Source: a virus
Lineage: Duplodnaviria; Heunggongvirae; Uroviricota; Caudoviricetes
Strand: one strand, 5' to 3'
IMG/VR virus record: IMGVR_UViG_2531839235_000007
DNA: 4,287 bases
Below the pieces are notes generated by a model. It had not been told where the DNA came from. It saw only the letters and a program-made list of their open reading frames with translations, and made no database searches. Every line of letters begins with the position of its first letter. Position 1 is the stretch's first letter. Below are positions 1 to 4,287 of this stretch, piece by piece. A program made the translations under genes and the position numbers.

Positions 1-486
1 CTCTGGATTGCTCAGATTGGCGCGATGACTGAACAGCAAATCCGGCAGGTCTGCCGTCAGTGCATGGACCGCTGCCGGGCGGGTGAAACGTGGCCTCCGG
101 ACCTGGCTGAGTTTGTGGCGTTGATTTCGGAGAGCGGGGCAAATCCATTTGGCCTGACGGTGGATGCCGTGATGGAGGAGTACCGTCGCTGGAGGAATGA
201 ATCCTGGCGGTACGACGGGAGTGATAAATACCCGTGGCCACAGCCGGTGCTGTACCACATTTGCCTCGAGATGCGTGACAGAGGGATTGAGCGGCAGATG
301 ACGGAAGGTGAGTTAAAACGACTTGCAGAACGGCAACTGACGAAATGGGCAAAGCAAGTTGGTAACGGGATGAGTATTCCCCCGATCCGGAGACAACTCG
401 CATCGCCGAAGTGCCCGCAAGGGCCAACGCCAATTGAATTACTGAAACAGGAATACGAGCGCCGGAAGGCGGCTGGTTTTGTTTGA
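1..486 (+). CDS. Replication protein P-like (lambda P family), 5'-truncated by the window edge
   Basis: Frame 1 is open from base 1 to TGA at 484-486 (track ORF 25..486 is the in-frame ATG portion). The translation recalls the lambda P C-terminal region: YPWPQPVLYH, TEGELKRLAERQL and IPPIRRQL versus my memory of lambda P YPWKSNAHYW, TDAELRRKAADEL and IPEPVKQL. This is from memory, not an alignment. Confidence 0.75.
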   Translation, partial: LWIAQIGAMTEQQIRQVCRQCMDRCRAGETWPPDLAEFVALISESGANPFGLTVDAVMEEYRRWRNESWRYDGSDKYPWPQPVLYHICLEMRDRGIERQMTEGELKRLAERQLTKWAKQVGNGMSIPPIRRQLASPKCPQGPTPIELLKQEYERRKAAGFV

Positions 487-519
487 ATCTGAGAAACGAT
501 TTTGTCGGAGGAAATTTTA

Positions 520-1236
520 ATGGAAACCGTATCTGACGCACTGAAAGCACTGAAAAGAGCCTCTTCACATGTGGTGGCAGCTCGCCTTGGAATTAGTCGT
601 GAAGAGGCTGTCAACGAACTGTGGAAACTGAAACGCCGTGGAGAAGCGGATAACAAGGGGGCGATATGGTGGCTGACTCAGGCTGGTGAAAGTGAACCGG
701 TGTCACCGGTACCGAAAGTGACGGCGCAAATGCTGACAGAGGCGATTGAACAACATGGCCCACAAACGGCGGATGAACTGGCATTGATGTTCGGAATTAC
801 CTCCCGCCGGGCGAATTCATCGCTGGCAATGGCAATCAGCAAAGGGTGTCTGATTCGCGTGAATCAGGATGGTAAATTTCGTTACTGCATACCGGGCGTT
901 GATTTACCGGCAGAGCCGAAAGCAGCATCCGTAGCTGAAACGGAGGGTAAAGCCCTTCCTCAGCCAGCTGGTGTTGCGTTACCAGTCCAGGAAACGGCTG
1001 CACAGGAAGAAATTAAAACAGAAGCGGTGGAGGACATTGTGAAGTTGCAGCAATCGTTCACTGAAGCGAAAGCAGATGACCTGATTCTACCATCGCTGCA
1101 TGTGGCTAACCGCGAGCTGCGCCGGGCGAAAAGTAATGTTCAGAAGTGGGAGCGAGTCTGTGCTGCGCTACGGGAACTGAACAAACACAGGGATATTCTC
1201 CGGGATATTACCGCCACCAGAGAGCAGCAGCGGTGA
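520..1236 (+). CDS. Hypothetical prophage protein with two winged-helix-like repeats and an acidic, coiled-coil-like C-terminal half (possibly DUF1627-type; family uncertain)
   Basis: Track ORF 502..1236 begins at a TTG; the in-frame ATG at 520 has GGAGGA 7 nt upstream, so 520 is preferred. Two similar segments (residues ~10-60 and ~75-130 of the track ORF) each look like helix-turn-helix plus wing. Stop TGA at 1234-1236. Confidence 0.75.
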
Positions 1237-1550
1237 GTGGCTGGAAGAAGTGGCGCTGGGCTGAAATCCTGATACTCCGGCAGTGTGCGGGAACGATGAG
1301 AGTCGAAAGCATCGGTTATCTGATTGGCCGTAGTGAGTCAGCCGTCAGGACGAAAGCGCGGGAACTGGGTATCAGCATGATGTTACGGGGTGATTATCAC
1401 CAGTCAGCCAAATGTTCACAGCGTGATATTGAGCTGGCGTGGCAACTGCATCAGCGTGGTGTACCCCGACGGGAAATTGCCGAAAAGTTTGGGATGAAGT
1501 TGGGCGCAGTGAATAACTACGTTTATTTCGACAGGAGGGTTCAGGAGTGA
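1233..1550 (+). CDS. Small DNA-binding protein with two tandem helix-turn-helix-like motifs
   Basis: Same frame as track ORF 1146..1550. GTG at 1233 overlaps the upstream TGA (GTGA), which suggests translational coupling; ATG at 1296 is an alternative start. Segments WAEILILRQ...[21 protein letters not shown] and [29 protein letters not shown] look like two HTH units; the first needs the 1233 start. Stop TGA at 1548-1550. Confidence 0.65.
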
Positions 1551-1849
1551 GGGTGAGGGTTTATATCGCCGGTCCGATGACGGGATATGAAAATTTTAAC
1601 CGCGAGGCATTTCACAAAACGGAAGAGGTGCTGAAACGGGAAGGGCATACCGTTTTAAACCCGGCAGTACTTCCGGACGGGCTGACTCAGCCACACTACA
1701 TGGATATTTGCATGGCAATGCTCCGTTGCGTGGATGCGGTTTACATGCTGAAAGGCTGGCAGCAGTCGGCAGGTGCAGGGGCTGAGCTGGCACTGGAGGA
1801 GAAACCGGGCCATGCGGTGATTTTTCAGGAGGTGGGCAGTGAATATTGA
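1547..1849 (+). CDS. DUF4406-like protein (nucleoside 2-deoxyribosyltransferase-like fold)
   Basis: Track ORF 1547..1849. GTG start overlaps the upstream stop (GTGA); AGGAGG at 1533-1538 precedes it, and an in-frame GTG at 1553 is an alternative. N-terminal VYIAGPMTGYENFNREAF and later AVYMLKGWQQSAGAGAE match my memory of the DUF4406 signature. Stop TGA at 1847-1849. Confidence 0.7.
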   Translation: MRVRVYIAGPMTGYENFNREAFHKTEEVLKREGHTVLNPAVLPDGLTQPHYMDICMAMLRCVDAVYMLKGWQQSAGAGAELALEEKPGHAVIFQEVGSEY

Positions 1850-2156
1850 CCCGGCGATAACGATTGATATGGCCCTGAACGCCGGCCTGGCACTTCTTGG
1901 TTATTTCTACATTATGTTCTGCAGCGGACGATGGCTGTCACTGTTGTTCATGAAAAAATGGAATAAACGCCGTAAGCAGGAGCAACGCCAGAAGGCAATG
2001 GATGCATTTTTCGAAGCCTTCGGAATTGACGGCATGGAACCAGGGGATCCAGCTCGCGCAATCAGCAGAGGGGGTGTAGTAATCCTTGTATATCGGAGTG
2101 AAGAGAAAAATGACGATCACAAAACAACGTGTAGAAGAAATCATATCCCGCATTGA
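1839..2156 (+). CDS. Possible small membrane protein (one predicted transmembrane helix followed by a basic stretch)
   Basis: Track ORF 1839..2156. GTG start with AGGAGG at 1827-1832, 6 nt upstream; ATG at 1869 is an alternative. Hydrophobic segment LALLGYFYIMFCSGRWLSLLF followed by KKWNKRRKQEQRQK. It overlaps the upstream gene by 11 nt and the downstream gene by 47 nt, so its true extent is uncertain. Confidence 0.4.
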   Translation: MNIDPAITIDMALNAGLALLGYFYIMFCSGRWLSLLFMKKWNKRRKQEQRQKAMDAFFEAFGIDGMEPGDPARAISRGGVVILVYRSEEKNDDHKTTCRRNHIPH

Positions 2157-2427
2157 AATGTATGGACATGGTGCAGGGTATATCGCAGACGAGGTTAATG
2201 ATCTGGCTATACTGGCGCTGAATTTATCAAATATCGCGAACCTGAAGCGATACGAGCTTGATATGGGAGGTTGCGACTCGTGCGGTCAGGATTGTGGCGC
2301 TGATATGACTGAAGATCCTGATGGTGATTATGTCCTGTTTGATGACGTGGTTAAGTTGTTTGAATTTGATACAACCACTCAAAAGTTAGAAATCCCGGCA
2401 AAGGAGGCAGCCAGTGGGCAAGATTGA
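2110..2427 (+). CDS. Hypothetical prophage protein with a Cys-rich CDSCGQDC motif and acidic C-terminus
   Basis: Same frame as track ORF 2086..2427, which begins at a TTG. ATG at 2110 with a purine-rich GGAGTGAAGAG stretch upstream is preferred. Stop TGA at 2425-2427. Confidence 0.65.
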   Translation: MTITKQRVEEIISRIEMYGHGAGYIADEVNDLAILALNLSNIANLKRYELDMGGCDSCGQDCGADMTEDPDGDYVLFDDVVKLFEFDTTTQKLEIPAKEAASGQD

Positions 2428-2851
2428 CTATCAGGCACTGCGTGAGGCAGCACAAAACTATCAATCGACGCTGGCGTGGTATCAGGCTACCCCGGACAGC
2501 CCAAATGCTGAACGGGATTGTGATGCGGCTCTTGCTGCGTTTAAGCGTCACATCCGTCATCGGGAAGCGGATATTATCGCTGATTTGCTGGATGGACTGG
2601 AAGAAGCAAAATCACAACTCAACGAGCAGCGTGAGTATTACGAAGGCGTTATCTCTGATGGGAGCAAGCGTATTGCTGAACTGGAAGCGCGGGAAGTTCA
2701 ATTACCGACTCGCTACGACCTTCGATATGGACACCCGATAAATGCAGATGAGCGACATGTCATGATACCTAAAGAAAATGGCAGTTGGCTTTACCTGATT
2801 GACCTAGAACACGCATTACGCGTCGCTGGCATTCGCATCAAAGGAGAGTGA
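2414..2851 (+). CDS. Ea22-like prophage protein (putative)
   Basis: Track ORF 2414..2851. GTG start with AAGGAGG at 2401-2407, 6 nt upstream. The N-terminus IDYQALREAA resembles, from memory, the N-terminal signature of ead/Ea22-like E. coli prophage proteins. Stop TGA at 2849-2851. Confidence 0.7.
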   Translation: MGKIDYQALREAAQNYQSTLAWYQATPDSPNAERDCDAALAAFKRHIRHREADIIADLLDGLEEAKSQLNEQREYYEGVISDGSKRIAELEAREVQLPTRYDLRYGHPINADERHVMIPKENGSWLYLIDLEHALRVAGIRIKGE

Positions 2852-2852
2852 G

Positions 2853-3044
2853 ATGAACGGACAAATATCAATTGTTCGACCAGGAGCATGTGACGATCGC
2901 GAAATACGAATGATTATTCGTCTGGCGATGGGGAAAACAATAACAGCTCTCATTACTCCTGAAAATCTCGCATTAGCATTAACAGGAAAGTCAGACATGC
3001 CAGTAGAGCTAAAGCTGCGAAATGTTGAGATTAAGGTGAAATAG
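2853..3044 (+). CDS. Hypothetical small protein (63 aa)
   Basis: Track ORF 2853..3044. ATG lies 1 nt after the upstream stop (GAGTGAGATG) with AAAGGAGAG upstream. I recognise no family. Confidence 0.6.
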   Translation: MNGQISIVRPGACDDREIRMIIRLAMGKTITALITPENLALALTGKSDMPVELKLRNVEIKVK

Positions 3045-3046
3045 CT

Positions 3047-3604
3047 ATGACCACTATTACCAAAGATCGACTGCTGACAATCCAGCATTGGCGCGAAACA
3101 TACGGACCGGGTAGCAACGTTGTGCTTCCAGCAGAAGAAGCGGAAGAGCTGGCACGGATTGCGCTGGCATCACTGGCAGCAGTATCGGATGAACGAGCAG
3201 CCTATGAATTATTTATGGAGAAGCGTTTCGGAGAATCTGTAGATCGCCGCAGAGCAAAAAATGGCGATAGAGAATACATGGCATGGGATATGGCGCTTGG
3301 CTGGATTATCTGGTGTCACCGCGCCGCCATGCTTCAGGCTGGAAACTTTCGGGAAAATAAGGGTTCGTCAACCAATAATTTTCGGATAATCTCGGAAACG
3401 TCAACCAACTCTCCGGCAATCCCTGATGAGGTGTTGTCCGCAATCCTGAAGGTCGCCAGGCTTCGTGCAGATTTCGATGCTTCTGAAGTGGACAGGCGAG
3501 GTATCGGTAGTTGTCTGGATGAGGCCGAGCAAGAACTTATCGTTACCATTAACGAATACGCCAGTCAGATCGCAGTAGAAGCGACACAGGGGGAGAACCA
3601 ATGA
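3047..3604 (+). CDS. Hypothetical prophage protein (185 aa)
   Basis: Track ORF 3047..3604. ATG with AAGGTGA upstream, 2 nt after the preceding stop. Long uninterrupted frame in a same-strand gene chain. I recognise no family. Confidence 0.75.
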   Translation: MTTITKDRLLTIQHWRETYGPGSNVVLPAEEAEELARIALASLAAVSDERAAYELFMEKRFGESVDRRRAKNGDREYMAWDMALGWIIWCHRAAMLQAGNFRENKGSSTNNFRIISETSTNSPAIPDEVLSAILKVARLRADFDASEVDRRGIGSCLDEAEQELIVTINEYASQIAVEATQGENQ

Positions 3605-3678
3605 GCCGGCCAGATGCATTTGCAGGCGTTGCTATAGCTATTGCTTTTCTAGTATATGTTATTTGTCGGTGGGGGTAA
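3601..3678 (+). CDS. Candidate 25-aa hydrophobic micro-protein (MSRPDAFAGVAIAIAFLVYVICRWG)
   Basis: Hand-translated; too short for the ORF track. ATG at 3601 overlaps the upstream TGA (ATGA), with GGGGAGA about 8 nt upstream. The peptide is one predicted transmembrane helix. Stop TAA at 3676-3678. Confidence 0.35.
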   Translation: MSRPDAFAGVAIAIAFLVYVICRWG

Positions 3679-3713: not shown

Positions 3714-3818
3714 ATGTCGGATGATATTTCACTGGCAATGGAAGGTGCGCTGGCTGTTATTGCTGTTGTGGGCGTTTACTGCCTGGTTGTGTTTTTGATG
3801 GATCGACTAGGGAACTGA
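3714..3818 (+). CDS. Candidate 34-aa hydrophobic micro-protein (MSDDISLAMEGALAVIAVVGVYCLVVFLMDRLGN)
   Basis: Hand-translated. ATG at 3714 with AAAGGAGGG at 3703-3710, 3 nt upstream. Acidic N-terminus, then one predicted transmembrane helix. Stop TGA at 3816-3818. Confidence 0.45.
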   Translation: MSDDISLAMEGALAVIAVVGVYCLVVFLMDRLGN

Positions 3819-3826
3819 ATTCATTA

Positions 3827-3848
3827 CGATATGGGAATTCCCATATCG
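3827..3848. repeat. 22-bp perfect palindrome CGATATGGGAATTCCCATATCG
   Basis: The sequence equals its own reverse complement. It sits between the 34-aa micro-ORF stop and the predicted hok promoter -35. No U-tract follows on either strand. Confidence 0.6.
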
Positions 3849-3860
3849 GGTAAAAACGGT

Positions 3861-3888
3861 TTGCGGTAAAGCGAGAGTTAAGTAGAAT
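3861..3888 (+). promoter_or_regulatory. Candidate sigma70 promoter for the hok/mok mRNA
   Basis: -35 TTGCGG at 3861-3866 and -10 TAGAAT at 3883-3888, 16-nt spacer. This places the transcript start near 3892-3897, where the 5' sequence complementary to the window's 3' end begins. Confidence 0.4.
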
Positions 3889-3906
3889 TGCTGCGGGTGC
3901 TTGAGG

Positions 3907-3942
3907 CTGTCTGCCTCGGGCATGCCACCGTAAGGCAGACAG
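3907..3942 (+). other. Stem-loop in the predicted hok mRNA leader (10-bp perfect stem, 16-nt loop with an internal GGCATGCC palindrome)
   Basis: CTGTCTGCCT at 3907-3916 is the exact reverse complement of AGGCAGACAG at 3933-3942. The loop contains the self-complementary GGCATGCC at 3919-3926. Confidence 0.5.
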
Positions 3943-3944
3943 AG

Positions 3945-4015
3945 AAAAGCCCCAGTTAACATTACGCGTCCTGCAAGACGCCTAACATTAATCTGAGGCC
4001 AATTTCATGCTAGAC
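3945..4015 (-). ncRNA. sok: Candidate Sok-like antisense RNA (coordinates approximate)
   Basis: In hok/sok loci the antitoxin RNA is antisense to the mok translation-initiation region. On the - strand there is a weak candidate promoter: -35 TTGCCT (+ coordinates 4050-4045), 17-nt spacer, -10 TAACCT (4027-4022). A T-rich run on the - strand near 3949-3941 could mark the 3' end. I could not define a clean terminator hairpin. Confidence 0.3.
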
Positions 4016-4219
4016 ACATGTAGGTTAGCCTCTTACGCGCCGAAAGGCAAGGAGAAGCAGGTTATGAAGCAGCAAAAGGCGATGTTAATCGCCCTGATCG
4101 TCATCTGTTTAACCGTCATAGTGACGGCACTGGTAACGAGGAAAGACCTCTGCGAGGTACGAATCCGAACCGGCCAGACGGAGGTCGCTGTCTTCACAGC
4201 TTACGAACCTGAGGAGTAA
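4007..4219 (+). CDS. mok: Mok-like leader ORF, in frame with and containing hok (70 aa)
   Basis: Track ORF 4007..4219. ATG at 4007 with CTGAGG about 8 nt upstream. The N-terminal extension MLDTCRLASYAPKGKEKQV resembles the chromosomal MokC extension as I remember it. Confidence 0.55.
   Translation: MLDTCRLASYAPKGKEKQVMKQQKAMLIALIVICLTVIVTALVTRKDLCEVRIRTGQTEVAVFTAYEPEE
4064..4219 (+). CDS. hok: Hok/Gef family type I toxin (HokD/RelF-like, 51 aa)
   Basis: ATG at 4064 with AAGGAGAAG upstream. MKQQKAMLIALIVICLTVIVTALVTRKDLCEVRIRTGQTEVAVFTAYEPEE has the Hok signature: N-terminal transmembrane helix, the conserved TRK-LCE-R motif and a periplasmic tail. It is close to Gef/HokC and RelF/HokD as I remember them. 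Stop TAA at 4217-4219. Confidence 0.9.
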   Translation: MKQQKAMLIALIVICLTVIVTALVTRKDLCEVRIRTGQTEVAVFTAYEPEE

Positions 4220-4275
4220 GAGACCTGGCGGGGGAGAAATCCCTCGCCACCTCTGATGTGTCAGGCATCCTCAAC

Positions 4276-4284
4276 GCACCCGCA
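4276..4284 (+). other. Candidate fbi (fold-back inhibition) element at the hok mRNA 3' end, pairing with the 5' end at 3892-3900
   Basis: GCACCCGCA at 4276-4284 is the exact reverse complement of TGCGGGTGC at 3892-3900. Long-range 5'-3' pairing of this kind is the known tac/fbi mechanism of hok mRNAs. The window ends at 4287, so the element may be incomplete. Confidence 0.45.
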
Positions 4285-4287
4285 CTT

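Follow-up and report, generated by a model that had tools for sequence, protein, structure and literature searches.

The window analysed here, the whole 4,287-nucleotide stretch of DNA, closes with a complete hok/mok/sok type I toxin-antitoxin cassette of the hokD/hokW type at positions 3861-4287. Only the terminator is missing, because the window ends (4287) just before it; in the nearest relative, the prophage Sp6 (L003, 7324-7351), the intrinsic terminator AACCCGCTTCGGCGGGTTTTGTTTTTT begins 1 nt past the window end. The initial annotation had described an apparently intact module, and every element that it listed was found where it had been placed, with the terminator alone falling beyond the window. 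Its identification of the locus as a hok/mok/sok type I module of a lambdoid prophage early region is supported by Pfam, Rfam and the homologues. The parts it had named also stand up to scrutiny: the Hok-family toxin ORF (4064-4219) contains neither a frameshift nor an internal stop, the in-frame Mok-like leader ORF opens at an ATG at 4007, 19 codons upstream of hok, and the leader hairpin appears at 3907-3942 both in the fold and as helix 2 of the consensus structure. The promoter it had called plausible is borne out by our reading of the sequence, by hexamer identity with 933W and by positional conservation. All of the sequence and structure elements of the cassette, together with their conservation and covariation, are shown by this analysis, and their coordinates are collected in Table 1.

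Table 1. Features of the hok/mok/sok cassette, in window coordinates.
Feature	Position	Strand	Basis
hok promoter: -35 TTGCGG 3861-3866, 16-nt spacer, -10 TAGAAT 3883-3888	3861-3888	+	Read from sequence
hok mRNA, full-length form, ending with the window just before the terminator	3895-4287	+	nhmmer, fold, covariation
tac element, 5' end, GGGUGCUUGAGG	3895-3906	+	Pairs with fbi in full-length fold; conserved, U-A to C-G covariation
5' leader hairpin	3907-3942	+	Fold; helix 2 with A-U/U-A compensatory changes
Predicted Sok antisense RNA, 71 nt	4015 to 3945	-	Homology to annotated 933W sokW; fold
mok Shine-Dalgarno GAGG, 8 nt 5' of mok ATG	3995-3998	+	Read from sequence
mok leader ORF, 70 aa, hok frame	4007-4219	+	ORF list; layout as in annotated mokW and the R1-type locus
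sok promoter: -35 TTGCCT 4050-4045, 17-nt spacer, -10 TAACCT 4027-4022	4022-4050	-	Hexamers identical in 933W; position conserved across the family
Hairpin burying hok Shine-Dalgarno: CUCUU 4030-4034 with AGGAG 4050-4054	4030-4054	+	Helix 4, 100% paired in 23 sequences
hok toxin gene, 51 aa	4064-4219	+	ORF list, Pfam, PHROG, identity to HokD
Downstream box pairing with hok start region (4058-4070)	4199-4211	+	Inverted repeat I7; helix 6, 3 compensatory pairs
3'-UTR hairpin GGCGGGGGA-GAAA-UCCCUCGCC	4227-4248	+	Helix 13, compensatory changes
fbi element CCUCAACGCACCC, complementary to tac	4269-4281	+	Fold, covariation, repeats I3 and I8

The toxin, MKQQKAMLIALIVICLTVIVTALVTRKDLCEVRIRTGQTEVAVFTAYEPEE, is opened by the ATG at 4064 inside the 70-aa ORF and matches the whole of the Pfam profile PF01848 HOK_GEF (positions 1-42 of 42; E 1.2e-23, 82.9 bits against a cut-off of 22), as well as PHROG 251, 'MokW-like host killing' (2.8e-33). 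It is 100% identical to HokD/RelF of E. coli K-12 and falls within the HokD orthologue group. RefSeq calls near-identical copies (96-99% nucleotide identity) hokD; the NCBIfam Hok models were of no help for naming, as they scored below their curated cut-offs (48.5 bits against 73 for the Hok subfamily HMM). The in-frame ATG 19 codons 5' of hok recurs in 15 of 23 relatives and is also present in mokW and the R1-type locus, while several other relatives carry an overlapping leader ORF in a different frame. This pattern fits a role for the translation of mok and not for its product.

Evidence for the hok promoter and for the extent of its transcript comes largely from comparison. The -10 hexamer ends 6 nt before a conserved GGGTGC 5' end at 3895, both promoter hexamers are identical in 933W hokW, and in all 23 relatives a -10-like hexamer precedes the conserved GGG start by the same interval, with the sequence 5' of the -10 diverging completely. 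Furthermore, when nhmmer aligned more than 50 loci (from Escherichia, Shigella, Kluyvera, Citrobacter, Pseudocitrobacter, Photorhabdus, Erwinia, Pantoea and an R1-type plasmid), the alignments started exactly at 3895, query position 1, and ended at approximately 388-393. Since the homology starts at this point and the sequence upstream of the -10 box diverges, the conserved unit is the transcript. Judged by consensus, the hok promoter would be weak: a generic sigma-70 promoter/terminator scan passed over it because it matches the consensus at only 8 of 12 positions, and likewise flagged neither the sok promoter (7/12) nor the Sok terminator. Support for the promoter calls therefore comes from homologues, from the conserved position of the hexamers and from published mutagenesis, and not from how closely they match the consensus.

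The leader (3895-4069) matches the Rfam family RF01794 from end to end (model positions 1-157; 115.6 bits against a gathering score of 59, E 8.9e-27). Although this family is named 'sok', the match lies on the hok-sense strand and runs up to the hok AUG, and so it attests to the hok mRNA leader and not directly to the antisense RNA; automated annotation based on RF01794 would place 'sok' on the wrong strand. Two other Rfam matches, a ceN48 snoRNA (E 0.8) and a minus-strand 'sok' at 3822-3953 (E 0.67), were set aside as chance, the second of them arising because the 5' hairpin is near-symmetric. The minus-strand ORFs 4033-4197 and 3807-3962, which appear in the mechanical ORF list, are without support.

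The minimum free energy (MFE) fold of 3895-4287 (z = -8.3) describes a molecule closed by the pairing of tac with fbi, in which the mok Shine-Dalgarno pairs with CCCC at 3950-3953 and the mok start with 4256-4268 (repeat I6). In alignment A2, which holds 23 relatives from Escherichia, Kluyvera, Citrobacter, Photorhabdus, Erwinia, Pantoea and an R1-type plasmid, the tac-fbi helix is 100% paired, and at its position 4 U-A occurs 15 times, C-G six times and U-G twice. RNAalifold recovered this helix and 12 others from A2, giving 67 consensus pairs. Across this consensus structure 95.2% of cells are paired, compared with about 44% when the partners are slid, 21 pairs are compensatory, and none of 500 shuffles did as well. 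Deleting 4253-4287 in silico yields an MFE prediction in which tac re-pairs with 3947-3953 and the mok Shine-Dalgarno moves into a new hairpin, 3995-4032, that would present the mok start and the Sok target. The Sp6 copy of strain Sakai departs from that of the window in the 5' hairpin, where T replaces C in the 3' arm and turns a G-C pair into G-U (L003, 6958-6972), and in the 3' arm with which the mok start is paired, where AA replaces TG (L003, 7290-7300).

Towards the end of hok, the nucleotides TTACGAA (4201-4207, with Tyr47 encoded by TAC at 4202-4204) are identical in 23 of 23 diverse relatives including the R1 type, and TACGAA, T308-A313 in module numbering, is invariant in A2. The heptamer is part of the downstream box, whose pairing partner is the hok start region (helix 6), and the UACG within it is presumably a TadA target motif. 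TTACGAA is also the kind of TadA site where hokD mRNA is reported to undergo A-to-I editing at a low level, by which Tyr is changed to an RNA-coded Cys (PMC12214031).

The antisense RNA, which the initial annotation had deduced from the architecture without clearly resolving it, can now be assigned by prediction to minus-strand positions 4015 to 3945, through homology to sokW and through its fold. The predicted molecule has a 15-nt single-stranded 5' tail and a long interrupted hairpin followed by the U-tract GGGGCUUUU (-31.3 kcal/mol, z = -5.4), a fold in keeping with a Sok RNA, and its hairpin contains an inner stem that is additional to those of the Rfam consensus and of R1. In published work on the Sp5 copy, HokW is toxic, sokW expressed from its own promoter neutralises it, and probe YO-592 detects sokW RNA on northern blots (PMC8621323). 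The primers YO-421/422 swap precisely the sok -10 box, identical in the window ('pro-less'), abolishing antitoxin activity against HokW. A partial dependence on RNase III and Hfq was also shown for Sp5 hokW-sokW, as was the loss of sokW on mitomycin C induction (PMC8621323).

Over its full length the window shares 99.5% identity with Sp6, a lambda-like prophage of O157:H7 (Sakai and EDL933) in which the ORF carries the label 'MokC'. Ahead of the cassette the window encodes the C-terminal part of a P-like helicase loader and then a run of small phage proteins, and downstream the closest relatives have genes for a DUF968 protein, RusA and the Q antiterminator. Given these neighbours, the earlier description of the site as the end of the prophage early region is a fair one. 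The downstream sequence differs in 933W and in strain 90-3040, where it runs into a YgiW/YdeI-like gene. A 488-nt module region matches 4722 of 5426 complete E. coli genomes, and in 3857 of them the match reaches at least 80% query coverage, leader included, with a median of two places per genome; it also matches 101 phage records, among them 933W at 92.5%. The initial annotation had considered an intact phage-borne copy notable, a view that these counts do not support, and the 933W copy has already been annotated and characterised (PMC8621323). Its statement that the hok copies of K-12 are mostly disrupted is correct: apart from hokB, the K-12 hok loci have all lost activity through insertion elements or rearrangement (PMC12214031), and K-12 hokD is truncated, with only 4050-4287 matched.

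Several smaller observations concern the surroundings of the cassette and its relatives. Just upstream of it are two very small hydrophobic ORFs, one of 25 aa (3601-3678, MSRPDAFAGVAIAIAFLVYVICRWG) that overlaps the stop of the preceding gene and one of 34 aa (3714-3818, MSDDISLAMEGALAVIAVVGVYCLVVFLMDRLGN) that follows GGAGG and is hypothetical in relatives (ECs_5710); neither gave a match in Pfam or NCBIfam. Between the latter ORF and the hok promoter, at 3827-3848, is a perfect 22-nt palindrome with a central EcoRI site, CGATATGGGAATTCCCATATCG, which has no T-run after it on either strand and lies just outside the block common to 933W, which starts at 3851. Near-identical hok loci also turn up on very short contigs (275-431 bp) that bear the names Acinetobacter idrijaensis and Xanthomonas pisi, as well as in an 'Actinobacillus phage' record (L020, L025, H12); they have the look of contamination from E. 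coli or of mislabelling. A decayed copy in E. coli ECMA0423 (L008) has a mutated 5' end, GACTGCATGTGG, and has lost the fbi pairing, and in three phage contigs and K-12 (L090, L094, L135, L004) the sequence 5' of the hok Shine-Dalgarno is unrelated.

Considering gene content, structure and context together, we think it very probable that the cassette is an intact moron of the hokD/hokW type in a lambda-like prophage closest to O157 Sp6, with a mode of action that is most likely R1-like. As far as modelling can take us, its sequence supports the R1 paradigm. In this model, the weak promoter at 3861-3888 would give rise to a stable transcript, about 420 nt long, that begins at G3895. In the full-length form tac and fbi would be paired and the mok and hok ribosome-binding sites buried, and we propose that for this reason neither translation nor Sok binding would take place. 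Slow 3' trimming would then strip away fbi, allowing the 5' end to refold onto 3947-3953 and the hairpin 3995-4032 to expose the mok start region. The short, unstable Sok (4015 to 3945) would pair with this region and block mok, and hence hok through translational coupling, with the duplex then being cleaved. Were Sok synthesis to stop, Sok would decay first and the stored hok mRNA would be translated; this could happen when the prophage is lost or induced, or when an infecting phage shuts off transcription. Hok would then enter the inner membrane and the membrane potential would collapse. Of the elements of this scheme, we infer Sok transcription, 3' processing, RNase III cleavage, toxicity and the biological trigger from the homologues R1 and Sp5.

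The probability that these ORFs and hairpins resemble a toxin-antitoxin module by chance is negligible; the Pfam and Rfam E-values (1.2e-23 and 8.9e-27) and the thousands of homologous loci already refute it. The candidate roles for such a module, by analogy, would be help with lysis on induction, as shown for Sp5, prophage addiction, and phage exclusion, which has been shown only for R1, on a high-copy plasmid. It is possible, if short of probable, that the module mainly serves the lytic cycle of its own prophage, with induction leading to the disappearance of Sok and the resulting membrane damage by Hok to faster phage release. In Sp5, a RecA-dependent fall in sokW RNA and increase in HokW production were seen, and phage lacking the hokW-sokW locus were released at about half the number (PMC8621323). 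However, these results represent a single study of one prophage and a 2-fold effect, and the Sp6-like prophage of the window may be defective. Moreover, its cassette is placed in the early region, whereas that of 933W is near the record end.

A device for addiction or abortive infection, which would kill cells that lose the prophage or are transcriptionally shut off by a superinfecting phage, strikes us as rather unlikely. Such a function is undemonstrated for any prophage copy, and hok is not enriched beside defence systems (bioRxiv 10.1101/2025.08.07.668861); furthermore, the several near-identical copies present in many genomes would blunt addiction unless each Sok were copy-specific. It is a good deal less likely again that the cassette, intact as it is, is physiologically silent, a hitch-hiking remnant that is never activated, in the manner of chromosomal hokA/B/C. 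Chromosomal hok loci, some of them intact-looking, did give no post-segregational killing or rifampicin activation (earlier work summarised in bioRxiv 10.1101/2025.08.07.668861), and decayed copies exist, with a mutated tac in the ECMA0423 locus and no leader in K-12 and some viral copies. The window, however, retains all of the regulatory elements, whose conservation extends to covariation, the Hok coding sequence is near-invariant among 73 phage copies, and the 92.5%-identical Sp5 copy is active (PMC8621323), all of which argues against silence and makes it an improbable reading.

The region in which Sok would recognise its target is unusually variable. Among 73 modules from IMG/VR phage contigs (within L059-L138), which encode an identical Hok and represent 60 unique sequences, the 15-base patch 4001-4015, comprising the Sok 5' tail and the mok-start flank, has a mean pairwise difference of 0.341, compared with 0.006 for hok, 0.000 for tac, approximately 0.015 for fbi, 0.075 for the Sok hairpin and 0.052 overall. 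It occurs as 16 haplotypes, in all of which the mok ATG in its middle is invariant, and the same patch is again the hot spot among 11 close relatives. One explanation, which we consider doubtful, is that the patch is under diversifying selection that keeps near-identical cassettes on co-resident prophages orthogonal. If so, each Sok would silence only its own hok, and separate addiction or induction signalling would be preserved for each prophage. The co-residence evidence on this orthogonality is mixed and anecdotal, with two genomes carrying three different patch haplotypes each and one genome carrying two identical ones. A variable Sok seed goes unmentioned in the Hok-diversity preprint, as covered by a term search, and in the hok passages shown from a cross-interaction review. 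The hypervariable patch is the sole lead from this locus that is possibly worth more work.

The module itself is already known, its toxin-antitoxin family being among the oldest and most thoroughly studied, and there is nothing new in the cassette as such. Hok homologues in general have been catalogued to the number of 44,248 and are enriched in prophages (2026 preprint, bioRxiv 10.1101/2025.08.07.668861). Its value lies in annotation. RefSeq usually names only hokD (or, wrongly, 'MokC') and leaves mok and Sok unannotated, and the window displays the full cassette whose truncated remnant is K-12 hokD/relF.

One close known system is hokW/mokW/sokW of 933W (AF125520) and Sp5 (Takada et al. 2021, PMC8621323), which is 92.5% identical to window positions 3851-4287 at the nucleotide level. 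The two cassettes share their ORF lengths of 51 and 70 aa, identical hok and sok promoter hexamers, identical tac and fbi, and the same position and length of Sok. They differ in the last residues of Hok, TAYEPEE in the window as opposed to VDYESEK in HokW, and at six of about 14 bases in the patch formed by the Sok 5' tail and the mok start, where complementarity is kept automatically despite the differences because Sok is cis-encoded. One base pair of the 5' leader hairpin also differs, by a compensatory G-C to A-U change. The cassettes are differently placed as well: that of the window follows the replication and small early genes, whereas that of 933W lies beyond the large L0134 gene.

The hokD (relF) locus of the K-12 Qin prophage encodes the same Hok and is 98.7% identical in nucleotides over 4050-4287, including the 3' UTR and fbi, but it lacks everything 5' of approximately 4050, relBE taking the place of the hok promoter, tac, the leader hairpins, the mok start and sok. 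An Rfam search of the K-12 locus gave no RF01794 leader match. With hok/mok/sok (parB) of plasmid R1 the architecture is shared and the sequence much diverged. Both have an in-frame mok 19 codons upstream, the same placement of the antisense promoter, tac-fbi pairing and an RF01794 leader, whereas their Hok proteins are only 42% identical and nucleotide similarity is weak (nhmmer, 55 bits). The inner stem by which the predicted Sok hairpin of the window exceeds that of R1 measures approximately 16-20 nt, and the carriers differ, R1 being a conjugative plasmid and the host of the window cassette a prophage.
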